Shown here piece after piece: positions 1-18,389 of a stretch of DNA of 18,805 nucleotides. The position numbers were made by a program, and so were the translations under genes. Below the pieces are notes generated by a model. The model did no database searches, was not told where the DNA came from, and was given only the letters and a program-made list of their open reading frames with translations. Origin of the DNA: a virus; UHGV virus genome UHGV-0261633, one strand, 5' to 3'. Every line of letters starts with the position of its first letter. Within the stretch, counting starts at the first letter, position 1.

Positions 1-1275
1 GGATTTACCAGCAGCGCCTGGGTCTTGAGGGATAAAAATACCAGTTCGCTTACCGTCACTTTCAGCAGTCAAATTAATTTGTGTTTCGACTCCAGAGGGT
101 CTATCTCTAAATCTTACTACATCAATGATATAATAGCAACCGTCTTTTTTAGATTTACCCATCTTAACACCTGCTGTCCAGTCTGGATTAGGGTTAATCT
201 CAGATGGTAAAGTTGCTGCTAAGTCCCATGCTCTGACATCGAATACATCTTCTGGGAGTGAATCAACAATTTCACACCATTGTCTTTGCCAATAGTTTGA
301 ACCTTCTGCACGAGCCTTCCAGTTACCGAAACGAAGTCTTGCAACGTTTACAGGGGTGTTGTTTTCCAACTTACCACGATATTTAGGTTCTAAGAAGTCA
401 AGAATTGGGTTATCATCAATCGTACCAGAGATGAATGTATATGTTTGAGGAATCTCAAGAGGAAACATTTCAAGAATCTTGTCTCTCTCCCAATCGGAAA
501 CCATAACACCATCATTCATTACATACCAACGAATACGACCACACTTTTCAGGGTCTGGGTAACCTTCTTCATCTAAGAATGGTTCTACCCAATCGTAAAT
601 AAAGTGGTCTCTGTCTGGGTTCATAGAAATCTTCATGTATGAATCACCTTCAGCCCCAGAACGTAGACGAGTCTGTAGGTATGAAATCTGTGAAGCAGAG
701 AAGTGCGTACCTTCGTCAAAGTAAATAGCTGAGTATTCAATACCCTGATGACCTTCAGCGTGCTTTTCAAGTTCTAGATAGGTAAACTTGATAGTTGCCC
801 CAGAAGGGAATGTGATAGTCATCTTCTGCTCGTGAGGAACCCCACCAAACTTACCAAATAGTTTCTTTGCAGCAGGCCACAAACCACCTTGTAGCTGTGT
901 TGTATTTCTACGGAAATATACAGCATTATAATTAGGGTCGTCAATAAACCTTAAAGAGTCCATTAACAATGCAGCAGTCTTACCAGCACCCGCAGCACCA
1001 CCATAGAGAACCAAGTCAGCATTAGTATTTAAAAAGACCTCTTGAGAACCCGGCTGAGGGGCTACATAGTTCTTATCAGTCATCAATTTGAAGATAAGTC
1101 TAACTTGGTCTGGTGTGTATCTTAATAAAGTCAGAATTTGAGTTGGAAGGAATTTAGAGGGGTCTTTACCGAATGATTTAATAATTTCTTTTACTTCATC
1201 AGAAAGCCCCAACTCTCCAGCTAGGACTTTCCTAACATCTTCCACTCGCTTCTGCTTAACAGCATTTAAGTCCAT
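1..1275 (-). CDS. terL: terminase large subunit (partial; N-terminal ~425 codons, C-terminus beyond window start)
   Basis: Minus-strand frame open from ATG (rc of 1273-1275) to the window edge; GGAGG RBS 7 nt upstream. Hand translation begins MDLNAVKQKRVEDV and contains Walker A LYGGAAGAGKT followed by FRRN, and Walker B-like AIYFDEGTHF. Assignment is from motif recognition, not a search. Confidence 0.65.
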   Translation of the reverse strand, partial: MDLNAVKQKRVEDVRKVLAGELGLSDEVKEIIKSFGKDPSKFLPTQILTLLRYTPDQVRLIFKLMTDKNYVAPQPGSQEVFLNTNADLVLYGGAAGAGKTAALLMDSLRFIDDPNYNAVYFRRNTTQLQGGLWPAAKKLFGKFGGVPHEQKMTITFPSGATIKFTYLELEKHAEGHQGIEYSAIYFDEGTHFSASQISYLQTRLRSGAEGDSYMKISMNPDRDHFIYDWVEPFLDEEGYPDPEKCGRIRWYVMNDGVMVSDWERDKILEMFPLEIPQTYTFISGTIDDNPILDFLEPKYRGKLENNTPVNVARLRFGNWKARAEGSNYWQRQWCEIVDSLPEDVFDVRAWDLAATLPSEINPNPDWTAGVKMGKSKKDGCYYIIDVVRFRDRPSGVETQINLTAESDGKRTGIFIPQDPGAAGKS

Positions 1276-1296: not shown

Positions 1297-1497
1297 TTAT
1301 TCAGAGTCTGTAGCAGTCTCTTCTTTCTTAACTTCGAACTTTGCATCAACAGCATCAAGAAGTGCATCCATAGATGCTTCTTTAATATCAATACCTGTTG
1401 CTACAGACAATCTGTCTGCAATTGCCATGATAGTATTCTGCATAAATTCTAGCTTTTTGTTAGCTTCATAAAGTTCTTTATAAACGGTCTCGCTCAT
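1297..1497 (-). CDS. hypothetical protein (66 aa) directly upstream of terL
   Basis: ORF track; GGAG RBS about 9 nt upstream of ATG; stop 22 nt before the terL start. Confidence 0.5.
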   Translation of the reverse strand: MSETVYKELYEANKKLEFMQNTIMAIADRLSVATGIDIKEASMDALLDAVDAKFEVKKEETATDSE

Positions 1498-1532: not shown

Positions 1533-1557
1533 TAAAAAAGACGGTACAGAGACCGTC
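1533..1557 (-). terminator. intrinsic terminator (minus strand) downstream of the tRNA array
   Basis: Stem gacggt/accgtc (1540-1545 / 1552-1557), loop acagag, adjoining aaaaaa on + (1534-1539) gives a U-tract after the hairpin on the minus strand. Confidence 0.6.
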
Positions 1558-1727: not shown

Positions 1728-1803
1728 TGGAGAATCCGAAGGGACTCGAACCCTTATAAACCTGTTTTGCAGACAGGCACATAGCCATTTCTGTCACGGA
1801 TTC
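1728..1803 (-). tRNA. tRNA-Cys (anticodon GCA)
   Basis: Hand fold: encoded CCA (tgg on + at 1728-1730), acceptor gaatccg/cggattc perfect, T-arm aaggg-actcgaa-ccctt, anticodon loop in tRNA sense CUGCAAA. Confidence 0.8.
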
Positions 1804-1807
1804 AAAT

Positions 1808-1900
1808 TGGAGGAAGATACCAGACTTGAACTGGTACACCGATTTCTCAGCTACTGGCAGTTTAGCAAACTGCTCCCTTACCTTTTAGGGTTAATCTTCC
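1808..1900 (-). tRNA. tRNA-Ser (anticodon GCU), type II
   Basis: Encoded CCA, acceptor ggaagat/atcttcc perfect, T-arm accag-acttgaa-ctggt, long variable arm, anticodon stem gcagt/actgc with loop UUGCUAA. Confidence 0.8.
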
Positions 1901-1902
1901 AT

Positions 1903-2637
1903 TTATTTCTGTAATGCGTTCTTCATTTCTGGTGTTGCAATAGTGTCAATTACACCAGTTTTACAAGCATCATCAAACCAGTCTGGTAAGATACCTGCTA
2001 AGAACCCATTGATATTCGTTTTAAGGTACTCTGCAATAAGGGCAGCTTCTTCTTCAATCATCTGCACAACTTCATCTGCATAAGCTGTAATCTTCGAGAT
2101 ACCTTCATTAATCTTACTAACAGCTTGGTTAGCTAAATCAGAAATAGTATCAAGACCTTTGTCAATAGCGTCTTGTAAGTCACTTAATACATCATTAACA
2201 CCGTCTAGTGCACTGTTAATCATATCAATAGCTTTTTGACCATACTCTGTAGCAACACCCATAATACCACTAAATGGTGTACAGCCAACTTGTTCACCTG
2301 CTGCACCCATAACATTAGAATAACCTTTTGCTACCTGCATACGTGATGAAAACTCATCAATGGACTTTTGACCGTAATCTGTCAGTGTTTTGGTAGTTGA
2401 TGTAGTGCTTGTCAGACTCGTGGTAAAGCTGTTAAGCAGAACTGTTGTAAGTCCAGCAGCAACAAGCTTATCCTTTACTGTAGGGTCTGATACAGAACTA
2501 ATAGAGCTTACAAGTGATGTAGAGGCAGCTACGGTTCCACCGAGAACTGCTGCACCAGTAATAAGGGGGTTAGAAAACCCTTTACCAGTTTTTAAGAGAT
2601 TAAAAATCTCCTTACCTTGTTCTGTCATCTCTTTCAT
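1903..2637 (-). CDS. hypothetical Ser/Thr-rich protein (~244 aa) embedded in the tRNA array
   Basis: ORF track 1903..2700, but the first 21 codons overlap tRNA-Phe and begin at a non-ATG codon; internal ATG at 2635-2637 has an AAGGTG RBS. Low-complexity S/T/A-rich N-terminal half. Confidence 0.55.
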   Translation of the reverse strand: MKEMTEQGKEIFNLLKTGKGFSNPLITGAAVLGGTVAASTSLVSSISSVSDPTVKDKLVAAGLTTVLLNSFTTSLTSTTSTTKTLTDYGQKSIDEFSSRMQVAKGYSNVMGAAGEQVGCTPFSGIMGVATEYGQKAIDMINSALDGVNDVLSDLQDAIDKGLDTISDLANQAVSKINEGISKITAYADEVVQMIEEEAALIAEYLKTNINGFLAGILPDWFDDACKTGVIDTIATPEMKNALQK

Positions 2638-2653
2638 TAAGCACCTTTGAAAT

Positions 2654-2730
2654 TGGTAGTCCAGTGGGATTTGAACCCTCTTCTCATGTTTTTCAGACAC
2701 GCGCTTTAACCATATAAGCTACTTGGACTA
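2654..2730 (-). tRNA. tRNA-Phe (anticodon GAA)
   Basis: Acceptor tagtcca/tggacta perfect, T-loop atttgaa (one mismatch in T-stem), anticodon loop CUGAAAA; 3' CCA encoding ambiguous. Confidence 0.7.
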
Positions 2731-2735
2731 TAAAT

Positions 2736-2811
2736 TGGGGTGACCTACGGGATTTGAACCCGTATAGACCATGTTCACAGCATGGGTCATTACCATTTAT
2801 GATAAGGCCAC
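2736..2811 (-). tRNA. tRNA-His (anticodon GUG)
   Basis: Encoded CCA, acceptor with one G-U, T-arm acggg-atttgaa-cccgt, anticodon stem ccatg/catgg with loop CUGUGAA. Confidence 0.8.
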
Positions 2812-2842
2812 ATTTAAGGACTCTCGTAAGAATCCTTAGAAG

Positions 2843-2918
2843 TGGCAGCGGCATAAGGATTTGAACCTTAATAAGACAGCTTCAGAGACTGCTGCATTGC
2901 CAGTTATGCTATACCGCT
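2843..2918 (-). tRNA. tRNA-Gln (anticodon CUG)
   Basis: Encoded CCA, T-arm taagg-atttgaa-cctta, D-arm gcat-tgccagtt-atgc, anticodon loop CUCUGAA. Confidence 0.75.
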
Positions 2919-2923
2919 AAATT

Positions 2924-3002
2924 TGGTACTCCATATCGGATTCGAACCGATACATAACACAGATTTTAAGTCTGGCCTCTCTGCCAATTGGAGTAATGGA
3001 GC
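2924..3002 (-). tRNA. tRNA with leucine anticodon UAA but type-I length (putative tRNA-Leu)
   Basis: Encoded CCA, discriminator A, acceptor actccat/atggagc (terminal G-U), T-arm atcgg-attcgaa-ccgat, anticodon loop CUUAAAA; about 7-nt variable loop, no long arm. Confidence 0.55.
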
Positions 3003-3004
3003 AT

Positions 3005-3080
3005 TGGCGGGGGATGTTGGAATTGAACCAACTTCTTCGATTTCAAAGACCGAGGTTTTAACCTTGTAAACTAATCCCCT
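3005..3080 (-). tRNA. tRNA-Gln (anticodon UUG)
   Basis: Encoded CCA, T-arm gttgg-aattgaa-ccaac, anticodon loop CUUUGAA. Confidence 0.75.
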
Positions 3081-3088
3081 TTAAATCT

Positions 3089-3646
3089 TTACTTTCTCAG
3101 TGGATGAATAAAGAATGCCAACATAACTCTTTCCCTTGAGAATGCTCTTTCTTCTGGGACAACACTTTTTAGCTTCCATCCAACATAAATTCTCCAGTAG
3201 AATTGTTTACCAAAGACTTTAATTGATGGGATAAAAGCGAATAATCCCCAAGCATTACTGTTCCACATTAGGAGATAACCTGTCTGATTATCTTCAGGGT
3301 CAGAACTTACGTTGATATTGCCTTTCCACTTAGTAACATCTTTTACATCTCTTCCTAACACATGGTAAGAGAAGTTATAAGCTTTGTTTCTCCAGAGCCA
3401 TCCAACTCTCTGCAAATAGACACCAAGCTTACCAATCTTTCTAATCTTAGCCCATCTTTTAACGTGACCTTCATCACCATCAATCGGGTTGTCATATGTC
3501 TCCATCCATCTGAATCCAAAAGGTAAGTGTCCTTTCTTCTCACTGTAAAATGGAACTACAAAAGGTGCTAAGATAACTGCTAAGATTGCTGCCAATGGTT
3601 CTAGCAAAGCTAAGAAAATCCATGAAGCATACTTCAAGTATCTCAT
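3089..3646 (-). CDS. hypothetical membrane protein (185 aa) embedded in the tRNA array
   Basis: ORF track; AGAGG RBS about 9 nt upstream; hydrophobic N-terminal segment IFLALLEPLAAILAVILAPFVVPF, Trp-rich remainder. Confidence 0.6.
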   Translation of the reverse strand: MRYLKYASWIFLALLEPLAAILAVILAPFVVPFYSEKKGHLPFGFRWMETYDNPIDGDEGHVKRWAKIRKIGKLGVYLQRVGWLWRNKAYNFSYHVLGRDVKDVTKWKGNINVSSDPEDNQTGYLLMWNSNAWGLFAFIPSIKVFGKQFYWRIYVGWKLKSVVPEERAFSRERVMLAFFIHPLRK

Positions 3647-3665
3647 TTAAATAGCCTCTTTAAAT

Positions 3666-3741
3666 TGGCGCAGGATAAGGGATTCGAACCCCTATTAACA
3701 GCTTCGTAGACTGTTGCTCTATCCATTTGAACTAATCCTGC
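3666..3741 (-). tRNA. tRNA-Arg (anticodon ACG)
   Basis: Encoded CCA, acceptor gcaggat/atcctgc perfect, T-arm aaggg-attcgaa-cccct, anticodon loop CUACGAA. Confidence 0.8.
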
Positions 3742-3855
3742 TTACCTACAAGAACACCATACAGTTTTTCACAAGAGTTGTTTTTACGCCTGTTTTTGAA
3801 TGACGCTATAAACTTTTTTGCAATTGATTTATTACTCATAGTGTTCTCCTAAAAT

Positions 3856-3933
3856 TGGTGTTCCAAGACGGATTCGAACCGTCACTAGTACAAGGTTTGA
3901 GCTTGCATCCTCTGCCAATTGGGATACTGGAAC
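3856..3933 (-). tRNA. tRNA with leucine anticodon CAA but type-I length (putative tRNA-Leu)
   Basis: Reverse complement GUUCCAG-UA-UCC..GGA-U-GCAAG-CUCAAAC-CUUGU-ACUAGU-GACGG-UUCGAAU-CCGUC-UUGGAAC-A-CCA; 6-nt variable loop, discriminator A. Confidence 0.55.
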
Positions 3934-3934
3934 A

Positions 3935-4009
3935 TGGTACTCACTAAAGGACTTGAACCTTTTTCTTCATCTTGTAAGGGTGATGTTTTACCATATAAAC
4001 TAAGCGAGT
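3935..4009 (-). tRNA. tRNA-Val (anticodon UAC)
   Basis: Encoded CCA, T-arm aaagg-acttgaa-ccttt, anticodon loop CUUACAA. Confidence 0.75.
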
Positions 4010-4011
4010 AT

Positions 4012-4102
4012 GAAAGAGGTCTGAAGTTGTGCCGCTAACTCAACTCCGTGGGATTTGTTACGGTCTTCAGTTGACTCAAAGCGGTCTTTCACTTGACCTC
4101 TA
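4012..4102 (-). ncRNA. tRNA-sized structured element without a canonical T-loop (possible tRNA-like RNA or degenerate tRNA)
   Basis: Outer stem agaggt (4015-4020) / acctct (4096-4101), inner stem ctgaag (4021-4026) / cttcag (4065-4070), internal hairpin ccgt..acgg (4046-4063); no GTTCGAAUC motif in either orientation. Strand not determined from sequence. Confidence 0.3.
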
Positions 4103-4105
4103 AAT

Positions 4106-4181
4106 TGGTGCTCCCACAAGGATTCGAACCCTGATAAGTTACTTACAAGGCAACCGTAATAGCCAATTATACGATAGGAGC
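4106..4181 (-). tRNA. tRNA-Thr (anticodon UGU)
   Basis: Reverse complement GCUCCUA-UC-GUAU-AAUUGGCUA-UUAC-G-GUUGC-CUUGUAA-GUAAC-..-CAGGG-UUCGAAU-CCUUG-UGGGAGC-A-CCA. Confidence 0.8.
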
Positions 4182-4188
4182 ATTAATT

Positions 4189-4263
4189 TGGAGCATCCAG
4201 AGGGAATCGAACCCTCAACCTCAGTTTGGAAGACTGTAATTTTCCCGTTTAAACTATGGATGC
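4189..4263 (-). tRNA. tRNA-Gly (anticodon UCC)
   Basis: Encoded CCA, acceptor gcatcca/tggatgc perfect, T-arm gaggg-aatcgaa-ccctc, anticodon loop CUUCCAA. Confidence 0.8.
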
Positions 4264-4269
4264 ACTAAT

Positions 4270-4345
4270 TGGTGGAGTCACCGAGAATTGAACTCGGTTC
4301 CCAAGTTTGCAAAACTCGAATTTTAACCATATAAACTATGACCCC
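4270..4345 (-). tRNA. tRNA-Ala (anticodon UGC)
   Basis: Encoded CCA, T-arm ccgag-aattgaa-ctcgg, anticodon loop UUUGCAA. Confidence 0.8.
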
Positions 4346-4351
4346 ATTGTT

Positions 4352-4427
4352 TGGTACAGGTGGAGGGAATTGAACCCATCGTCTTACTGATTAAGAGTCA
4401 GCCGCATAACCATTTTGCTACACCTGC
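4352..4427 (-). tRNA. tRNA-Lys (anticodon CUU)
   Basis: Encoded CCA, acceptor with terminal G-U, T-loop aattgaa (T-stem only 3 clean pairs), anticodon loop CUCUUAA; paralogous in outline to the tRNA at 5656-5731. Confidence 0.7.
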
Positions 4428-4434
4428 ATTAATT

Positions 4435-4512
4435 TGGTAGGAGACAAGGGATTCGAACCCTCAAACACCAACTTCTAAGGATGGTAGGTTTACCAATTAC
4501 CGTCAATCTCCC
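4435..4512 (-). tRNA. tRNA with leucine anticodon UAG but type-I length (putative tRNA-Leu)
   Basis: Encoded CCA, discriminator A, acceptor 7 pairs with two G-U, T-arm aaggg-attcgaa-ccctc, anticodon stem CCAUC/GUUGG (one mismatch) with loop CUUAGAA; D-arm poorly paired. Confidence 0.5.
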
Positions 4513-4593
4513 ATTAAATCTTTTTAGAGAACTTCTAAGAACCTAAGCAACAAGGTTCCACAACAAGCTGTAATAACCTTAGAAGCCCTCTAA

Positions 4594-4613
4594 AAAGACC
4601 TAAATAGGTCTTT
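4594..4613. other. AT-rich hairpin in array spacer (weak terminator-like)
   Basis: aaagacc-taaata-ggtcttt flanked by A/T runs; orientation and function unclear. Confidence 0.25.
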
Positions 4614-4767
4614 GCATAGTCTTGTTTAATCCGGTGACTAGAACCTTTGGAGAGCTTGATATTATCTCTTCTCCGTGACACCTACTAGGTGCTTTGACAG
4701 TGTACGACAATACACGAGGGATACCAAAGCAACATCCAAATGAAGCTTGGCTTTAAATCTTATTAGG

Positions 4768-4855
4768 CGGTAAGTAAAGGAGTCGAACCCTCACCGTATC
4801 TCTACAGTGGCAACTGTTTTCAAGACAGTTTGGCTACCATTAGCCGCTACCTACC
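4768..4855 (-). tRNA. tRNA-Ser (anticodon UGA), type II
   Basis: T-arm aaagg-agtcgaa-ccctc, ~20-nt variable region, anticodon stem actgt/acagt with loop CUUGAAA, acceptor ggtaagt/acctacc with one G-U; CCA apparently not encoded. Confidence 0.65.
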
Positions 4856-4868
4856 CCTAATAAGACTT

Positions 4869-4951
4869 TGGCATGGGACGGAGGAGTTGAACCCCTTTGA
4901 AACGGTTTTGGAGGCCGTTGCTCATGCCTTAGAGTCTTAACATCGTCCCAT
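4869..4951 (-). tRNA. tRNA-Trp (anticodon CCA)
   Basis: Encoded CCA, acceptor atgggac/gtcccat perfect, T-arm ggagg-agttgaa-cccct, anticodon loop CUCCAAA; D-region longer than canonical. Confidence 0.6.
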
Positions 4952-5093
4952 ATTATAATTCGAAGCTTACCCTGTTATCTCAACACTGTCAAGCTTCTTC
5001 TCAGATTATTTACATGTTCTGGAAAACATGAGATACAGACCACCTCCCTACAGGAAGACCCGCTAAGGCCGTCTAAGTAATCTGCTAACTATT

Positions 5094-5175
5094 TGGTCGA
5101 GGCGGCAGGACTCGAACCCGCATACTCCACTTACTCGGTTAACGGCGGTTTAGAAGACCGCTGAGATACGCCCCG
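5094..5175 (-). tRNA. tRNA-Arg-like (anticodon UCU) with non-canonical body
   Basis: Encoded CCA, acceptor cgaggcg/cgccccg, T-arm gcagg-actcgaa-cccgc, perfect anticodon arm GCGGU-CUUCUAA-ACCGC; but only 7 nt between acceptor and anticodon stem (no room for a D-arm) and 23 nt between anticodon and T arms. Confidence 0.45.
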
Positions 5176-5423
5176 TAATTATCTTTAAAGACTCTCTTAG
5201 AAAGCCCTTAAAGATGCCCACCTTATTAATCATACCGTGGGCGAGTACGCCAAATTCTTTAATGAGGGATTGGAAGACCTCACTGGTGTTTAGCCTATCA
5301 AGCTACTGCCAGAAAAACATTGTCGTTTGCATTTATTTTAAATTTGCAAAATAGACGCTACGCAACGAAAACTAAGGTTACTATAAAGTAGTCACATCTC
5401 AATGTCAACAACTTTATTGAAAT

Positions 5424-5498
5424 TGGTTGTAGGTGAGGGTATCGAACCCTCTTCTAACGGTTATCAGCCGTTTGCATTACCATTTATGCTAACCCACA
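5424..5498 (-). tRNA. tRNA-Ile (anticodon GAU)
   Basis: Encoded CCA, T-arm gaggg-tatcgaa-ccctc, D-arm gcat-taccattt-atgc, anticodon stem aacgg/ccgtt with loop CUGAUAA. Confidence 0.8.
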
Positions 5499-5500
5499 AT

Positions 5501-5577
5501 TGGAGGTTCAGATGGGAATCGAACCCACATTCATAGGGCTTATGAAACCCCTGCATTACCTTATCTGCGACTGAACC
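5501..5577 (-). tRNA. tRNA-Met (anticodon CAU), elongator-like acceptor
   Basis: Encoded CCA, acceptor ggttcag/ctgaacc perfect, T-arm atggg-aatcgaa-cccac, anticodon stem GGGGU/GCCCU with loop UUCAUAA. Confidence 0.7.
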
Positions 5578-5655
5578 AGAATAAGTACCCTAGTTAGAGA
5601 AACTGTTGAGTGGGTGTTTCCAGCCGCGCAGGTGTTTCTCAGTTAAGGGTGAATT

Positions 5656-5731
5656 TGGTAGAAGTGGAGGGATTCGAACCCATCGCCTGTCAGATTAAAA
5701 GTCTGCCGCATCACCATTCTGCTACACTTCC
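5656..5731 (-). tRNA. tRNA-Lys (anticodon UUU)
   Basis: Encoded CCA, acceptor with terminal G-U, T-loop attcgaa, anticodon loop CUUUUAA. Confidence 0.7.
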
Positions 5732-5736
5732 ATTAA

Positions 5737-5876
5737 ATTATCTTTGTAGATAAGCTACCCAGACTTGCTTAAGGTCTGTAGCGATGTGCCTTTTGGGTTT
5801 AAATCTAGAATTTACCCTTCACCCTTTGTGGTCGCATACTCACAGGTAAGCTTAATAACTTATCTACAAAGATAAT
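5737..5876. repeat. 18-bp perfect inverted repeat flanking a 104-bp ORF-free segment
   Basis: attatctttgtagataag (5737-5754) is the exact reverse complement of cttatctacaaagataat (5859-5876). Confidence 0.85.
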
Positions 5877-5920
5877 TACCAGACCGTTGTTTATCATCTT
5901 AAGTGCTACCATTACACCAA

Positions 5921-5975
5921 CTCGACATCTGCCGAGTGAAGGAATCGAACCTTCGCCTTTTCTTTACCGGAGAAA
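5921..5975 (-). other. tRNA fragment-like element (canonical T-arm plus one hairpin, no matching acceptor 5' strand)
   Basis: T-arm gaagg-aatcgaa-ccttc (5938-5954) and hairpin tttct-ttaccgg-agaaa (5958-5974); no complementary acceptor strand found downstream. Confidence 0.3.
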
Positions 5976-5990
5976 TAGATTGTTTAAGTT

Positions 5991-6018
5991 TTGCTGTAAA
6001 CGGTCTTCTGTAAATTTG
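5991..6018. repeat. 28-bp exact direct repeat, copy 1 (ttgctgtaaacggtcttctgtaaatttg)
   Basis: Identical 28-mer at 6471-6498; degenerate copies at about 6078-6097 and 6638-6658. Confidence 0.85.
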
Positions 6019-6130
6019 TTGAGCCAGACCAAGTTTTAAATTTTCAAAATTAAATTGGCTTGAAATTTCATACATTCTTGCTGTATTTGGTCTTCTGCTC
6101 CTTTAAAGAATACTCGTAAGAACTCTTTAA

Positions 6131-6153
6131 GGGAGGGGCTAAATAGCCCTCTC
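6131..6153. other. GC-rich hairpin gggaggggct-aaat-agccctctc
   Basis: Shares the 15-mer ggggctaaatagccc with a hairpin at 18364-18378. Confidence 0.5.
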
Positions 6154-6158
6154 AAAAT

Positions 6159-6235
6159 TGGCGGCTACGATGAGACTTGAACTCACATCATCTCCCGTGA
6201 CAGGGGAGTATTTTCTCCAGTTAAACTACATAGCC
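6159..6235 (-). tRNA. tRNA-Asp (anticodon GUC)
   Basis: Encoded CCA, T-arm atgag-acttgaa-ctcac, anticodon stem ctccc/gggag perfect with loop CUGUCAC. Confidence 0.8.
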
Positions 6236-6240
6236 TTTAT

Positions 6241-6328
6241 TGGTGTGCCGTGTAGGAGTCGAACCTACCGAGTCTCAATGACAAGGGATTTACAGTCCCC
6301 ACCGCTACCATCTACGGGATAACGACAC
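6241..6328 (-). tRNA. tRNA-Tyr (anticodon GUA), type II
   Basis: Encoded CCA, T-arm gtagg-agtcgaa-cctac, ~15-nt variable region, anticodon loop CUGUAAA. Confidence 0.75.
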
Positions 6329-6336
6329 ATTTAATT

Positions 6337-6413
6337 TGGCGGTTAGTCAGGGATTCGAACCCTGTGCCATTCGCTTAACAGGCGACCGCACATACCTTAT
6401 GTGCTTCCTAACC
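6337..6413 (-). tRNA. tRNA-Asn (anticodon GUU)
   Basis: Encoded CCA, T-arm caggg-attcgaa-ccctg, D-arm gcac-ataccttat-gtgc, anticodon loop CUGUUAA. Confidence 0.75.
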
Positions 6414-6470
6414 ATGTTTAGTATTACCAGACCGTATCTTTCAATTTTTCCGCTAAAAATTTAATAAGTA

Positions 6471-6498
6471 TTGCTGTAAACGGTCTTCTGTAAATTTG
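6471..6498. repeat. 28-bp exact direct repeat, copy 2, abutting the 3' end of a tRNA-Met gene
   Basis: Identical to 5991-6018. Confidence 0.85.
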
Positions 6499-6573
6499 GA
6501 GGCGGGTGCAGGAGTCGAACCTGCCGATACCATGCTAATGAGACATGTGAGACGCCCTTTCTCTATACCCGCA
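6497..6573 (-). tRNA. tRNA-Met (anticodon CAU), possibly initiator-type or tRNA-Ile2
   Basis: Encoded CCA, T-arm gcagg-agtcgaa-cctgc perfect, anticodon stem CAUGU/GCAUG with loop CUCAUUA, D-arm gaga-cgccctt-tctc; position 1-72 appears unpaired. Confidence 0.65.
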
Positions 6574-6664
6574 ATTCTTAATGACCAGACCAAATCTCTT
6601 CTTTGTCCGATTTACCTTCAGATGAATAAGATTAAGTTTGCTGTAATTGGTCTTCTGTCAAAAC

Positions 6665-6742
6665 TGGCGTTCCAGAAGGGATTTGAACCCTCAAATATCC
6701 ACTTTGAAAGAGTGGTGACTTTACCATTTTGTCTACTGGAAC
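6665..6742 (-). tRNA. tRNA-Glu (anticodon UUC)
   Basis: Encoded CCA, acceptor gttccag/ctggaac perfect, T-arm aaggg-atttgaa-ccctc, anticodon stem ccact/agtgg with loop CUUUCAA. Confidence 0.8.
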
Positions 6743-6749
6743 ATTAATT

Positions 6750-6826
6750 TGGTCTCTGTTGGAGGACTTGAACCTCCGGCCTTACCGCCCCAAACGGAAC
6801 GCTCTACCAAGCTGAGCTAAACAGAG
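6750..6826 (-). tRNA. tRNA-Pro (anticodon UGG)
   Basis: Encoded CCA, acceptor ctctgtt/aacagag perfect, T-arm ggagg-acttgaa-cctcc, D-arm gctc-taccaagct-gagc, anticodon loop UUUGGGG. Confidence 0.8.
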
Positions 6827-6991
6827 ATAAACTTTTAAAACTCTATGTAACCACTTTAACATTATTTTTTAGTGGCTGTCAAGAACTTTTTTAAAATATT
6901 TTTCAGTATCTTAGAAAAGCTCTCATTTCGTTTCTATGTAGAACATATTAAAGGGTATTAAACACATTGTCAATACCCTTTTTAAAACTTT

Positions 6992-8407
6992 TTACCAGAT
7001 ATAACGGTCAATCATTACTGCTTTGAGCATTACGCTGATTGGGTCAAACTTCTCACCACTAAGCAGAGCTTTTAAAGTGGCTGGAGAGAAACCAGATACC
7101 ATTGCTACACCGTTATCCTTAACAGATACTTCGCAAGTACCATTACGGTTTGCTAAGTACCAGAATACCAGTTGTGGCATCTCATATCCAGCTTTTTTGT
7201 ACTTACTCTGAATTGCTTCAAAGTTTGTACGACCGTTAGCTCCATCAACCTGATTGAACTCCATATCGGAGAAGATGATAAGCTTACTTGGCATATCTTT
7301 CTGAGTCAAGTTGTTTCTTTTACCTGTTTCAAGAATGCGGTCAAAAGCTGCTTGTAAGTTAGTTGAGCCATATTCAACGTGTCGCATCACCTGACGATGA
7401 CGGTTTCGTAAATCACCACTCAGTTCGATGAAGTGAGGGTTTGTCGAATAAACCATCAACTCATTCTTAAAGCAACCTGTATTGCGTTCTGCTACATACA
7501 AGGCAAGTGATACACCAATATCCAGAGCAGTAATGGAGCCAAAATTCACCCAAGACATTGAACTTGATACATCAGACATACACAAGATGTTTTCACCTTC
7601 TGCCATCCAGTTTGGTAGTGCTTTCCACTGCTCATTAGCAACATCTGCATTACCATACTTGACAGATTTAATCACATCGTATGGGTAAACAGCACCAGCG
7701 TTAATCTTAGTCTCACCTTTTGATAAGGACTCGATGTAAGCTTTGTAACGCTCTCCATCTTTACGGTTAAACAGTTTTTGGTAACGTGCAGCAGCAAGTG
7801 AAGGAATCTTACTGTAGTCAATCTTACCAAACTCATTAGCAGAGATTTTTTGCTCAACTGTATCAGATAGTGCAGACAACAGTGTGCGGTACTCTTTCTC
7901 ACTCAAGTTGGCAAACTTGCAGAAACGTTTTACAAACTGCTTATGACGTGGTTTGACTCGTGGTAACCACTTAGCCGCCAAACCTGCTGTTGCAGGGTCT
8001 AGTAATGCTGCTTCTAAATGTTTGAAGGCATCTGTCTCGAAACGAGTACCTACGAAGATTTTGAAGTCATCAAAACGACCAAGTTCTGCAATCTTATCCA
8101 TAATGCGAAGAACCTGTGTAGGCTCTAAAACTTTATCTTCAATTGCTTGAAGCAAAACAGTTCTGAAGGCTTTACGCTCACCCATACCTTCTCGTACATC
8201 TCGCATATGCAGTAAAATACGAACTGCAACATCAACATCCTCACGCAAAGCTTTGTAGAACAGGTCTGGTAAGATTTCTACATTGCTACGGCTTGAACCA
8301 GCAGCTTTGTAAAAGTCTACAAGAGCAGACATTGATGAAGTATGGTTTACAGCACCATTTTCAGTTCGACCTGCATGAAGGTGCGCATGTTTAAATAATT
8401 CGCTCAT
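6992..8407 (-). CDS. von Willebrand factor A (vWA/MIDAS) domain protein, 471 aa, with ~270-aa helical N-terminal domain
   Basis: ORF track; C-terminal half has a DxSxS MIDAS motif (ILCMSDVSSSMS) and a vWA-like hhhhSD motif (KLIIFSDMEFNQ); GAGAG RBS. Domain call is from motif recognition only. Confidence 0.8.
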   Translation of the reverse strand: MSELFKHAHLHAGRTENGAVNHTSSMSALVDFYKAAGSSRSNVEILPDLFYKALREDVDVAVRILLHMRDVREGMGERKAFRTVLLQAIEDKVLEPTQVLRIMDKIAELGRFDDFKIFVGTRFETDAFKHLEAALLDPATAGLAAKWLPRVKPRHKQFVKRFCKFANLSEKEYRTLLSALSDTVEQKISANEFGKIDYSKIPSLAAARYQKLFNRKDGERYKAYIESLSKGETKINAGAVYPYDVIKSVKYGNADVANEQWKALPNWMAEGENILCMSDVSSSMSWVNFGSITALDIGVSLALYVAERNTGCFKNELMVYSTNPHFIELSGDLRNRHRQVMRHVEYGSTNLQAAFDRILETGKRNNLTQKDMPSKLIIFSDMEFNQVDGANGRTNFEAIQSKYKKAGYEMPQLVFWYLANRNGTCEVSVKDNGVAMVSGFSPATLKALLSGEKFDPISVMLKAVMIDRYIW

Positions 8408-8446: not shown

Positions 8447-8476
8447 ACTTTAGAGCAACTTTGTAGAGTCTGTCAA
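8447..8476 (-). promoter_or_regulatory. candidate sigma70-like promoter on the minus strand upstream of the vWA gene
   Basis: Minus-strand TTGACA (rc of 8471-8476), 18-nt spacer, TAAAGT (rc of 8447-8452); overlaps inverted repeat tgacagac/gtctgtca. Confidence 0.35.
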
Positions 8477-8488
8477 CACCTTTTAAAA

Positions 8489-8860
8489 TTATTTTTTGAG
8501 GGTTGCAACAGCAGAGAACGTTGGTTTGTTGTCTGTCTGAGACTGACCACCATTATCAGGGGTCTTCTTAGTGTCTGCTGCAATCGCTTTCATCTCACCT
8601 GCTGAGTGGGTCATGATAGTTTTACCAGCTTCCATCATCGACTTCAGGTTTACATCGTCAGTCGTCAAACCGAACTCTGCAAGCTTAGCAGCGTCCCTTG
8701 TAACAATCGCTTCAAACAACTTTGCAGCAAACTCAGCAGAATTATCAATGGTCAGTTGAGCTTTTACAAGTGAGCTTTTGTTACGTGAGCCTTTTGGTCT
8801 TCCAGATGGGTTTCCAGACTGGCCTTTTTTAAACTGGCCTTTGTTTGTTCTGTTTTTCAT
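8489..8860 (-). CDS. hypothetical basic protein (123 aa) with N-terminal GQSGNPSGRPKG motif
   Basis: ORF track; AAGAGG RBS 8 nt upstream. Lys/Gly-rich N-terminus; I recall this motif from small phage DNA-binding/terminase-small-subunit-associated proteins, unverified here. Confidence 0.65.
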   Translation of the reverse strand: MKNRTNKGQFKKGQSGNPSGRPKGSRNKSSLVKAQLTIDNSAEFAAKLFEAIVTRDAAKLAEFGLTTDDVNLKSMMEAGKTIMTHSAGEMKAIAADTKKTPDNGGQSQTDNKPTFSAVATLKK

Positions 8861-10117: not shown

Positions 10118-10489
10118 ATGAAAGCTAAGAGTGCAAAAGACTTTTATTGCTTCCTACAATCCTATATCAATTCCGTGCAAAATGGTGAAAGGTACAACCT
10201 TAATGATGTTATCCCAACACCTTTGACATGGAGACTCAGTAAATGGCCTGAAGAAGATATTACACCAACAAGCGAACAGCGTACCTACAAACCTGAAATT
10301 AATATTCCAGACTCTGAGAATCTATTATACCCAATGTTCCATATTGTTGGTCTTGGAAGATTCCTTATGGATATCCAGTATGTAATTGGTAAAGGTTATA
10401 AGGTTAAAGATATTGTCGTTGGTGATGTATCTCCGAATCACAAAGGTTATTTTAGACTAAACGCACATTTAGAGGCTGAAAAGAAATGA
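10118..10489 (+). CDS. hypothetical protein (123 aa), paralogous to the N-terminal domain of the next gene
   Basis: ORF track; shares an aligned pattern with the next ORF (YPDFKEF../KDFYCF.., GxRYx, W..PE.DI, YKP.., FxMDxQY). Confidence 0.7.
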   Translation: MKAKSAKDFYCFLQSYINSVQNGERYNLNDVIPTPLTWRLSKWPEEDITPTSEQRTYKPEINIPDSENLLYPMFHIVGLGRFLMDIQYVIGKGYKVKDIVVGDVSPNHKGYFRLNAHLEAEKK

Positions 10490-11622
10490 TTAAAGCAAAG
10501 ACTTACCCAGACTTCAAAGAGTTTGTGAAGGGCTTCATTGCAAACGTAAAGGCTGGTAAGAGATATGATTTTAGAACATATCAAGAGGCTATTTTACCAC
10601 TTACCTATAGCTCGTATTGGCCTGAAGCTGATATTGCAGAAGTTGAGAAGTTTGACTATAAACCAGACTACAAAGTTCCATTTAGTGATGAGTTGCTTTA
10701 CAGTGTTGGTGCTCAAATGAGAACTTCTGACTTCTTCATGGACTTACAATATGCAATTATCAATGGTAAAGACGTTGATACAGTTTATTGTGAATGGCTG
10801 GCAAGAGTTAAACCATTCTCAATGTTGAATGCTAAGTTGAAGGACGCTATCAAGCCACCATCAATCACTCAGCAACCAACCAATCAAACAGTAAATGAAG
10901 GTGGTACACTTACCCTAAGCGTTATTGCAACTAATGCCACTGGATATCAATGGAAAAAGGATGGTGAGGATATCACTAGCGCCACATCTGCAACTTACAC
11001 AAAACAGTCAGTAGCACCTTCTGACGCTGGTTCATATACTTGTGTTGTATCTGGGGAGGGTGGGACAAGTGTCACATCAGATGCAGCAACAGTTACTGTG
11101 AATGCCTTACCAGTGATTACCAAGCAACCTTCTAACCAGACCGTTAATGAAGGTGGAAACATCAGCTTAGCAGTTACTGCAACAGGTGCAACTGGTTACC
11201 AATGGAAGAAAGATGGTTCCGACATCCCTTCAGCTACAAAGGCCACATATAGCAAATCTGGTGCACTTCCAGCAGATGCTGGCTCATACACTTGCGTTGT
11301 AACAGGTGCTGGAGGTTCGGTTACTTCTAACCCTGCAACTATCACAGTAAACGCACTACCAGTTATTACTCAGCAACCAACAAATCAAGAAATCACAGAA
11401 GGTGAAACCTTGACACTAAGTGTTGTAGCTACTGGTGCAACAGGCTATCAGTGGAAGAAAGATAACGTAAACATTCCTAGTGCAACTGCTGCAACTTACA
11501 CCAAAGAAAGTGCAACGAGTGCAGATGATGCAGGAAGCTACACTTGTGTAGTAACTGGCGCAGGTGGTTCGGTAACATCTAATGCGGCAACAGTTACAGT
11601 TAATCCAGCAGGAGGTGAATAA
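10486..11622 (+). CDS. protein with paralogous N-terminal domain plus three tandem Ig-like domains (378 aa)
   Basis: ORF track; three ~82-aa repeats each with QPxNQxVxEGxxLxL..ATGYQWKKDG...AGSYTCVV.GAGGSVTS..ATVTVN, a typical Ig-like (I-set-type) signature. Confidence 0.85.
   Translation: MIKAKTYPDFKEFVKGFIANVKAGKRYDFRTYQEAILPLTYSSYWPEADIAEVEKFDYKPDYKVPFSDELLYSVGAQMRTSDFFMDLQYAIINGKDVDTVYCEWLARVKPFSMLNAKLKDAIKPPSITQQPTNQTVNEGGTLTLSVIATNATGYQWKKDGEDITSATSATYTKQSVAPSDAGSYTCVVSGEGGTSVTSDAATVTVNALPVITKQPSNQTVNEGGNISLAVTATGATGYQWKKDGSDIPSATKATYSKSGALPADAGSYTCVVTGAGGSVTSNPATITVNALPVITQQPTNQEITEGETLTLSVVATGATGYQWKKDNVNIPSATAATYTKESATSADDAGSYTCVVTGAGGSVTSNAATVTVNPAGGE
10861..11598 (+). repeat. three tandem ~246-bp coding repeats (Ig-like domain units)
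   Basis: Approximate unit boundaries 10861/11107/11353, read from the protein repeats. Confidence 0.8.
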
Positions 11623-16182: not shown

Positions 16183-16731
16183 ATGGAAAAAGATAACTTA
16201 AAAGAAGTTGAAGGTAACTACCTAGTCCTTGACTGGAATGATATTCGTGGAGCACTCTACGAAGAAAGCCTTAATAGGTTAGAACAAATTATCTTTGCAG
16301 TACGGGGTTACAGAGAGGTTCAAAATGGTAAAGACCCACTTGAAGGAATCTTTGTAGAGAAGTCTTATCCGTTCTATGAAGACACTTTGCAGAAAGTTAA
16401 GATGCACTTTAAACAGAAGAACCGTAAAGTGGTCACTATGGTATCTCTTGGTGGACAGAGTATGTCTGTGATGGAAGATATCAACCCTAAGAGACCGAGT
16501 AAAGGCGTTTGTATAAAAATCACAGGTCATGAAGAGTATATCTCAGTAGATGACTTTAGAGCATTCTGTAGTGGTTCTTGTGTCTTTAATGGTTTTCACT
16601 ATGATATCCGAGTGTACCCAATCAAGGGAGATGATATCATGATGCAGGTATTCGATAATAACAATGGATTTACTCATTTTTATCAGACAACCAAGTCATC
16701 ATTGAAAACAGTTCTGGAAACACTGATTTAA
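16183..16731 (+). CDS. hypothetical protein (182 aa from internal ATG; ORF opens at 16138)
   Basis: ORF track 16138..16731; start uncertain (16138 overlaps upstream gene by 32 nt). Confidence 0.6.
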   Translation: MEKDNLKEVEGNYLVLDWNDIRGALYEESLNRLEQIIFAVRGYREVQNGKDPLEGIFVEKSYPFYEDTLQKVKMHFKQKNRKVVTMVSLGGQSMSVMEDINPKRPSKGVCIKITGHEEYISVDDFRAFCSGSCVFNGFHYDIRVYPIKGDDIMMQVFDNNNGFTHFYQTTKSSLKTVLETLI

Positions 16732-16742
16732 AATATCTTAAG

Positions 16743-16766
16743 AGCCTCCTTAATCGGGGGCTTTTT
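16743..16766 (+). terminator. rho-independent terminator closing the plus-strand gene block
   Basis: agcctcc-ttaatc-gggggct then ttttt. Confidence 0.75.
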
Positions 16767-16835
16767 AATTTTTATAAAATTTATCGGTTGTCCCAACCGC
16801 TGGGTCACCATCATATGTGAATAAAATATCTACCC

Positions 16836-17850
16836 TTCTTAACAACCTTCTTAATCTTACTCTCTATATAGTTATATAGTACTATATAGTATCTTAGTAT
16901 CTATCTAGTGGTCTTAATAGCCCCTCTGTATAGTCCTTCTAAACACTCTTCTAACAAGCCTTCTTAACAACCTATACAATCACCTTAACCATACCTCTAC
17001 ACCCTCTTAGAAGCCCCTATACACCTCTTAATCTCTAGGTTAGCTATGTTACCCTCTATAGGTGTTCACTAGGTACTACTAAACCTCTATATAGACTGTT
17101 TTAACAAACTTAACAGGAATATCTTCACAGACCTTATCTCACAAGGTCTAACACGGTACTAACAAGGTATCTTATAAGCCTGTTATTACCTGTATTTTTA
17201 AAAGACTGTATAGGTAATTATTCAGAATTTTAAAATTTTTATAAAATAGGGCTATCAAGTCATTTTTTAGGGTCTTTGAAGGAACTGAAAAATATCTGTA
17301 GAAGATGTATATCTGCTTGGTAGCCCTTAACAGCCCCCTTACAAGTACTTTGCAAAATTTTAAAATATCCTTAACAATCTCTTAACAGCTACTACAGCCT
17401 CTTAACATCTCTTCAGAGGTCTTAACAGATTCTTAACAGAACTAACAAGGTTGTAACAAGTTCTTAACAGTCGATACATGGTCTTTACAGAGTCTTAACA
17501 GATGACTAACAAGAGCTAACAAGTTAATTTTTAAGAGTTATTTTGTTAAGATAATTAACAAGTCTCTAACAAGTGTTTAATCTTTTTAACAAGCTATTAA
17601 CATGGTCACTACTCTTTTCTTATCGTTCCCTTTGCTTCTTAGTGATTCTTTAAACATACCTCTTAAAAGCTCTCTATAGCTCCTTGTAAGCTCTTTTAAG
17701 TCTCTTCCTAGTATTTACCCCCCAACTGTACAGATAGCTCTTTATAGGGCTTTACAGGAGCTTTTAAGGCTATGTCAAAGACTCTTACAAGGCTTTTACG
17801 TGGTCTTAACAGAGATTTAACAAGGGGCTAACAAGTTGCTAACAAGTGCC
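16836..17850. repeat. array of short direct repeats (core TTAACAR / CTAACAAG), iteron-like
   Basis: At least 20 copies by eye, e.g. 17381, 17401, 17421, 17433, 17442, 17453, 17463, 17494, 17506, 17516, 17555, 17566, 17586, 17805, 17817, 17828, 17839; many spacings of 9-12 bp; no ORF of 60 aa or more in any frame across 16732-18380. Confidence 0.75.
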
Positions 17851-18324
17851 TTAAAAGCATAACTATGTAGGGTTTGTTAAGAAATTGTTAAGAAAATGTT
17901 AAGGGGGCTAGCATTTACGTAACTTTTAAGCTACTTCAAAGTAACTTTATAGCCCCTATAACATACTTTAAAGGAACTACCAAGCCCTTTTTAGTAGTTC
18001 ACAAGAATACTAACGAGATGATAAAGCTTACACCCTTATAAGATTCTTCTAAGGCTCTGGGAAGCTCTATAAAGGGCTTTTTAGAGTGGGTTAATGCAAT
18101 CCCTTAAGTTAGGTTGATAAGGCTGTTATAGGGCTTTATAGAGCGTTTAAATGGTTGCCCTTCCCTTTCGGGTTATGGGCTTTTATTTAAGTTGATTTGA
18201 TAAGAGGTTATAGAGTAGACTATAGAGTTATTGCTTTTAAGGTACGGGATAGATTCTATCGAATTAGTGGGATAGATTCTGGAAAGGGAAGGGAAAGGGT
18301 TGTATAGAGGCTATTACAGAGACG

Positions 18325-18351
18325 TAAAAAAGCCCCTATGAGAAAGGGGCT
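18325..18351 (-). terminator. rho-independent terminator (minus strand) downstream of the 82-aa gene
   Basis: agcccct-atgagaa-aggggct preceded on + by aaaaaa, giving a U-tract on the minus strand. Confidence 0.7.
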
Positions 18352-18363
18352 GTAAAGGTATCT

Positions 18364-18379
18364 GGGGCTAAATAGCCCC
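18364..18379. other. GC hairpin ggggc-taaata-gcccc
   Basis: Shares the 15-mer ggggctaaatagccc with 6136-6150. Confidence 0.5.
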
Positions 18380-18389
18380 GTTGCGTCGA

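Follow-up and report, generated by a model that had tools for sequence, protein, structure and literature searches.

The minus-strand gene at positions 8489..8860 of the window, by which we mean the whole 18,805-nucleotide stretch of viral DNA analyzed here, encodes a 123-aa protein that is probably the small terminase subunit (TerS) of Felix O1-like phages and one of a very large family of TerS proteins filed only as DUF5681. We put the probability of this reading at roughly 65%. It is based on the conserved position of the gene in relatives, on the lack of any alternative TerS and on the architecture of the protein; homology plays no part in it. Most likely, DUF5681 is a TerS family unlinked to the known ones, with an AT-hook-like arm, and is encoded in this genome 7 kb from its partner, the large subunit (TerL).

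The ORF begins with ATG, and the sequence AAGAGG lies 8 nt upstream. Residues 7-77 of the protein match the Pfam family DUF5681 (PF18932) with a score of 52.5 bits (cut-off 27.5; E 7.8e-14). The protein also matches phrog_4114, a family of unknown function, at E 1e-75, and tblastn located the gene in 297 phage records, which are of the Ounavirinae type. Because of these three sets of matches, the ORF is a genuine conserved gene and not a chance ORF. Its Felix O1 counterpart is ORF41. The family as a whole is large, as a search of 1.8 billion representative proteins returned 19,768 clusters at E<=0.001 (about 20,000 clusters at 50% identity). In the source records, all homologues are named either "hypothetical" or "DUF5681", and all 76 homologues that we aligned fall into PHROGs of unknown function. 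Literature searches with the family name, with motif strings and with the combination of AT-hook and small terminase found no published function for DUF5681/PF18932.

The window comes from a Felixounavirus, a myovirus of the Felix O1/wV8 type. The 2.4 kb around the DUF5681 gene are 98.5% identical to the Escherichia phages warpig and heid, and nearly all of the 253 phage records with a match to this stretch are from Felixounavirus and relatives. The DUF5681 gene is the first of its minus-strand unit and sits beside a divergent intergenic region. It is followed, on the same strand, by an 81-nt gap, a TROVE/vWA gene (6992..8407), an array of 25 tRNA genes with two embedded ORFs (1728..6826), a 66-aa ORF (1297..1497), a 21-nt gap and TerL (1..1275). 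The last of these, recognized from its translation and from RefSeq as a homologue of Felix O1 ORF52, is represented by its first 425 codons and continues past the left end of the window. A sequence-only reading made before this analysis had described a small basic protein with a GNPSGRPKG motif separated from terL by the whole tRNA array, and had given the gene order as a small-subunit-like gene, vWA, tRNA array, 66-aa ORF and terL. Both descriptions agree with the ORFs, the pI of the protein (9.95), the 25 tRNAs that ARAGORN places in between, and the annotation.

Other genes of the window deserve brief comment. The TROVE/vWA protein (471 aa; DUF2828 and DUF7788 in Pfam; phrog_850, "RNA-binding protein"; also in RefSeq) has a Ro60-like architecture and is encoded directly upstream of the tRNA array. 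At the corresponding position in the Ounavirinae phage Arno18, which infects Pectobacterium, the gene is absent. The protein is probably tied to the tRNA array and not to packaging, and it may have a role in tRNA or RNA quality control. The two Pfam-matched ORFs inside the array, DUF7338 (3089..3646, minus strand) and DUF7217 (1903..2700, minus strand), are conserved. The longest version of the DUF7217 ORF, with a GTG start, overlaps tRNA-Phe (2654..2729), while the RefSeq version is shorter (244 aa), and the true start is probably downstream of the GTG. On the plus strand, the "tail protein" at 10486..11622 has 378 aa and three tandem Ig-like domains, compared with 293-294 aa for its homologues in typing phage 1 and warpig, which suggests one additional Ig repeat in the window protein.

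The main evidence for a role in packaging is the position of DUF5681 genes in other phages. We searched viral contigs with conserved peptide patterns and retrieved 77 distant DUF5681 loci, whose proteins share 22-32% overall identity with the window protein. Seventy of these loci have a downstream ORF of at least 100 aa and form the base of the adjacency count. In 64 of the 70, the DUF5681 gene is followed by TerL as the next ORF, and 62 of these 64 TerL ORFs either overlap the stop codon of the DUF5681 gene or directly adjoin it. Three unrelated TerL lineages follow DUF5681 genes: 57 of the TerL proteins belong to a BLAST cluster of the Terminase_3 type, five are T7-type and two are T4-type. 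Among the six loci that lack a downstream TerL, one has an HNH endonuclease in its place. The same DUF5681-TerL order was found in three metagenome contigs (L003, L004 and L007), in the Leptospira phage LE4, where the portal gene comes next, and in the Salmonella phage STGO-35-1, with 128 nt, spanning the circular junction, between the end of the DUF5681 gene and the start of TerL. The neighbor is ambiguous in one bacterial contig (P0054), where the 470-aa product of the downstream gene scores below the threshold of the TerL models. No known TerS family occurs among the upstream neighbors of the distant DUF5681-TerL loci.

The DUF5681 family fills the canonical TerS slot in several unrelated TerL lineages. 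A TerS gene is expected to be co-oriented with TerL and immediately upstream of it; the distant members have this arrangement, whereas the window gene is co-oriented but has its stop codon 7.2 kb upstream of the TerL start. In the viral-contig loci (L013-L089), the DUF5681-TerL pair is very often directly preceded by genes for DNA modification, among them N6/N4 methylases that carry a ParB-N domain, TAGT, Mom, Tet/JBP and queuosine-pathway genes; they represent the end of a DNA-modification module.

The distance between the two genes is graded among relatives whose TerL belongs to the same lineage as that of the window: 0.7 kb, 8 tRNAs, about 27 tRNAs and, in the window, 7.2 kb. In the Pseudomonas phage phiPMW, the DUF5681 gene (gp123) is 0.73 kb upstream of TerL, and tRNA clusters are found upstream of gp123. 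A marine contig (L092) carries a DUF5681-like gene, whose product is 38% identical to the window protein, followed by 8 tRNAs and one ORF, TerL and portal. Arno18 has DUF5681, about 27 tRNAs, a 71-aa ORF and TerL, with no vWA gene. In the Felix O1-like phages, this interval also contains a vWA gene and ORFs of the homing-endonuclease type. The window TerL is 44% identical to the TerL of the marine contig and 39% identical to that of phiPMW, and the position of the tRNA array is the same in the RefSeq records, in Arno18 and in the marine contig.

The series formed by phiPMW, the marine contig, Arno18 and the window supports what the sequence-only reading had suspected, namely that the tRNA array lies within a packaging module, as the two genes that it parts are contiguous in other phages. 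The split of the pair is old, because the marine relative shares it. The junction between the two genes would have acted as an insertion hotspot, and the TerS gene would have been parted from TerL by the tRNA array, by homing-endonuclease-type and other small ORFs, and by the TROVE/vWA gene.

Scans for promoters and terminators between the DUF5681 gene and TerL returned numbers of sites that do not exceed the shuffled expectation. The sites include promoter-like TTGACA-N18-TAAAGT sequences at 6853..6882 and 8447..8476 (minus strand), ahead of the tRNA array and of the vWA gene, and a terminator-like hairpin with a T-run at 1540..1557 (minus strand), between the last tRNA and the 66-aa ORF; neither type is more frequent than in shuffled sequence. 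Given the 7.2-kb gap, and the sites in it that resemble promoters and terminators (no more often than expected by chance), the DUF5681 gene need not be expressed together with TerL. In the RT-PCR table for Felix O1, ORF41, ORF42 and TerL (ORF52) peak at 25 min, and ORF51 and portal (ORF53) at 60 min. The shared timing of ORF41 and TerL is compatible with the TerS reading, but weakly so, because the 25-min class holds 59 ORFs.

Felix O1-like phages are annotated with one terminase subunit. The Felix O1 genome paper found only TerL and no TerS (PMC3185647), a PHROG-based annotation of the complete genome of phage vB_EcoM_D4 has no TerS anywhere, and none of 60 sampled records names the DUF5681 gene as TerS. 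These phages might package their DNA with TerL alone, as the description of Felix O1 implies (PMC3185647), or with TerL and the 66-aa ORF, and the DUF5681 protein would then be a dispensable ancestral accessory. The 66-aa ORF (Felix O1 ORF51; phrog_4397, function unknown) lies 21 nt ahead of TerL and has a conserved equivalent in Arno18, orf74, which occupies the same position and is 28% identical. An extra segment of about 70 aa at the N-terminus of the window TerL, missing from the marine-contig and phiPMW homologues, also fits packaging of this kind. We nevertheless consider it improbable, since the DUF5681 gene, with its invariant arm, is kept in every relative examined, and since the 66-aa protein is acidic, lacks a basic or DNA-binding segment, matches no family with an assigned function and has no counterpart among the phiPMW proteins compared.

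The extra TerL segment itself (1066..1275, minus strand), for which we saw no counterpart in the TerL proteins of the marine contig and phiPMW, might be where the small subunit docks.

The 66-aa ORF had been put forward in the sequence-only reading as an alternative small subunit. We rejected it as the better candidate: its product has a pI of 4.43 and no basic segment, it matches neither gp124 nor gp125 of phiPMW, no PDB entry and no Pfam family above threshold, and its homologues were found only within the Ounavirinae. It is more likely an Ounavirinae-specific accessory.

The DUF5681 protein, which we prefer as TerS, resembles no established TerS family in sequence or fold. Scans of Pfam (at E<=0.1), PHROGs and NCBIfam (hmmscan) gave no match to such a family, including Terminase_2/4/5, Nu1 and the gp16 type, either for the window protein or for its distant homologues. 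A profile built from 25 diverse homologues retrieved no TerS chain from the PDB at E<=10; it returned an HMGA AT-hook peptide and chance helical matches only. No likeness between the predicted model and the fold of solved TerS structures was detected. The TerS-like character proposed in the sequence-only reading therefore stands on gene position (the 64 of 70 loci, LE4, STGO-35-1 and phiPMW), with DUF5681 relatives directly upstream of TerL in many unrelated phages; the expected similarity in sequence or fold did not appear, and the earlier interpretation is supported in part. That reading would have been given up if the protein resembled neither a TerS nor a DNA-binding family. We found no resemblance of the first kind, but did find one of the second, in that the motif is similar to an AT-hook. 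P27-family small terminases (Terminase_4 / TIGR01558) have a GNPGKRP-like N-terminus. We do not claim a relationship to them, as the Pfam and NCBIfam scans gave no Terminase_4 / TIGR01558 match.

The architecture of the protein is that of a small, basic protein with an N-terminal arm and, by prediction, a helical core and a disordered tail. Its sequence starts MKNRTNKGQFKKGQSGNPSGRPKGSRNKSS, with GNPSGRPKG at residues 16-24, and residues 1-40 carry a net charge of +9. In the AlphaFold2 model (mean pLDDT 69.7, with the blocks covering residues 41-80 at 83-87), residues 1-27 are unstructured. They are followed by a predicted helix at 28-54, a short helix at 57-61 and a helix at 72-98 (codons 28-99, 8564..8779, minus strand), and by a C-terminal tail that is predicted to be disordered (codons 100-123, 8492..8563, minus strand). 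The monomer models of DUF5681 proteins, with pLDDT of 70 and 76, are of moderate confidence only. The C-terminal part varies by subfamily, from two long helices in the window protein to a helix, a beta-hairpin and further helices in the marine type. No helix-turn-helix (HTH) is predicted in the protein, and no informative structural neighbor of the model was found.

The conserved element of the family is the basic arm KKGQSGNPSGRPKGSRNK (codons 11-28, 8777..8830, minus strand), which we propose as the DNA contact on the basis of its conservation, an alignment to HMGA and its predicted lack of structure. In 25 diverse sequences, K12, G13, N17, P18, G20, R21, P22, G24, S25 and N27 are invariant; across 76 sequences, G13, N17, P18, G20, R21 and G24 are still invariant and P22 is nearly so. 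The arm, in the form GRPKGSxNK, resembles an AT-hook. It has the Gly-Arg-Pro core (G20-R21-P22) with flanking basic residues (K11, K12, K23, R26 and K28), but not the Arg that precedes the core in R-G-R-P, which is replaced by Ser in the window protein and by Ser, Asn, Ala, Leu, His, Thr or Glu in homologues. As judged from its sequence, the arm is AT-hook-like and lacks the first Arg of RGRP.

Database matches point in the same direction. The best PDB alignment of the 25-sequence profile pairs an HMGA AT-hook (PRGRPKGSKNKG) with PSGRPKGSRNKS; it is short, and its E of 0.11 is not significant alone. The top match of the DUF5681 profile among the representative proteins is a 798-aa protein with nine canonical AT-hook repeats (KRGRGRPKGSKNKATLAKEQ). 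The second AT-hook of HMGA1 (PDB 2ezd/2eze) has the same core GRP followed by KGS(K/R)NK. It differs in having the first Arg of RGRP, where DUF5681 proteins have Ser, Asn or Ala, and DUF5681 proteins differ from it by their invariant upstream KG-SGNP element and their helical domain. Three transposase-like proteins of 680-816 aa (P0145, P0246 and P0248), one of them with a DDE_Tnp_1 domain, carry at their C-termini 5-9 tandem repeats of KRGRGRPKGSKNK(A/T)TLA(K/R)E, which match the DUF5681 arm and the start of the first helix.

A basic AT-hook-like arm would also suit a regulator of middle or late transcription, or a nucleoid-associated protein that compacts DNA, with no direct terminase role. 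Such a protein could be encoded by the first gene after a divergent promoter region, 7.2 kb from TerL with promoter- and terminator-like sites in between, and would not be expected to show TerS homology. This explanation has no account of why the TerL start overlaps or abuts the DUF5681 gene in 62 of 64 distant loci and across three TerL lineages, nor of why those loci offer no other TerS candidate, and we regard it as unlikely, even if it is the strongest of the competing explanations.

Known terminases provide partial precedents for a TerS with the architecture of the DUF5681 protein. HK97 TerS reads its site through an N-terminal arm that is disordered and inserts an arginine into the minor groove beside an A-tract, and the TerS proteins of P22, 44RR and HK97 have no folded DNA-binding domain (PMC11331095). 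Like the DUF5681 protein as predicted, HK97 gp1 (PDB 6z6e; PMC11331095) is small, lacks a folded HTH and has a helical oligomerization core and a disordered C-terminus, and its arm, which lays an arginine in the minor groove, is disordered without DNA, as is predicted for the DUF5681 arm. By analogy, DNA reading by a disordered DUF5681 arm is plausible. The two proteins differ in that there is no sequence or fold match between them and the HK97 arm has no GNPxGRPKGS; moreover, the TerS gene of HK97, a cos phage, directly adjoins TerL, unlike the window gene. The T4-type TerS proteins (gp16 of T4 and 44RR) have a helical hairpin core and no well-defined DNA-binding domain, and belong to large virulent myoviruses, as in the Felix O1 case. 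They are comparable in size to the DUF5681 protein. No similarity between the two was found in Pfam, PHROGs or the PDB, and T4 gp16 is encoded directly upstream of gp17.

One observation is unusual for a TerS: mass spectrometry of STGO-35-1 virions detected a DUF5681 protein with two peptides (19% coverage). The window protein might then be a DNA-binding component of the virion, packaged along with the genome or on it, and not part of the terminase; the presence of its relative in purified STGO-35-1 particles, its small size and its very basic character all agree with this. The two peptides could, however, be carry-over, the Felix O1 protein (gp41) is not among the structural proteins in the summarized proteomics of that phage (PMC3185647), and the place of the gene beside TerL points to packaging and not to a head-internal protein. 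Of the explanations considered, we find this one the least probable.

A possible DNA target is present in the window. The region 16731..18381 has no ORF of at least 50 aa and contains, at 17319..17908 (no strand assigned), the equivalent of a direct terminal repeat of about 590 bp, which corresponds to the genome ends or the concatemer junction. The assignment comes from phage vB_EcoM_D4, whose exact 581-bp repeat at both ends maps to this segment; at least five other records start or end in the segment and carry it twice. Direct terminal repeats have been reported for vB_EcoM_D4 (PMC11737134), which is at odds with the pac headful packaging reported for Felixounavirus (PMC13431587). The 590 bp hold 28 YTWACA (CTTAACA-like) motifs, or 47 per kb, compared with 3.8 per kb in the rest of the window. 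The motifs are spaced by 11, 20-22 or 31-33 bp, with a best common phase of 10.4 bp, and three inverted copies lie at 17875..17902. Similar phased arrays of TTAACA/TGTTAAG occur at the start of the record of Erwinia phage Prophecy. We consider the phased array a candidate recognition site for the packaging machinery. A ring of DNA-binding arms would fit motifs that face the same side of the helix, and such motifs could equally serve another protein. In phage T7, a very small TerS, gp18, works with a TerL that cuts at direct terminal repeats. The likeness to T7 extends to the five DUF5681 loci with T7-type TerL and to the Felixounavirus records with a repeat of about 0.6 kb, but no relationship in sequence came to light.

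These elements can be combined into a mechanism, in which the DNA binding, oligomerization, TerL contact and DNA target of the DUF5681 protein are all inferred. The unstructured arm KKGQSGNPSGRPKGSRNK would act in the manner of an AT-hook, with Arg21 and the flanking Lys and Arg residues placed in or along the minor groove of AT-rich DNA. The helices at 28-54 and 72-98 would form the oligomerization core of a ring, as in other TerS proteins, whose helical cores assemble into 8-12-mers, and the disordered C-terminal tail would touch TerL. The oligomer would mark the concatemer junction, upon which TerL would cut and packaging would start. Its most likely target would be the phased TTAACA-like array in the 590-bp terminal repeat.

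A broader proposal, which is a good deal more speculative than the TerS assignment and which we offer tentatively, as possible and no better than that, is that DUF5681 constitutes an unrecognized and very widespread TerS family that reads DNA with a ring of AT-hook-like minor-groove arms and not with a helix-turn-helix. In Felix O1-type phages the ring would dock on the phased TTAACA array of the 590-bp repeat, and the TerS-TerL junction would have served for a long time as an insertion hotspot, into which the tRNA array was taken up. If it exists, a TerS with an AT-hook-like arm would represent a third mode of DNA recognition, beside the HTH and the "arginine clamp" of HK97, and the phased repeat array offers a concrete substrate for testing AT-hook-like recognition.

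Among phages for diagnostics and biocontrol, Felix O1 is a classic, and the annotations of several hundred of its relatives show no TerS. A packaging module that can be divided by 7 kb of tRNA genes implies that TerS calling based on adjacency can miss such cases. If DUF5681 is TerS, the packaging module of the whole subfamily would gain its missing part, and about 20,000 phage and metagenome sequence clusters would gain a function. The assignment would also allow genome starts to be better defined, and would improve the prediction of packaging type and the assessment of transduction risk.
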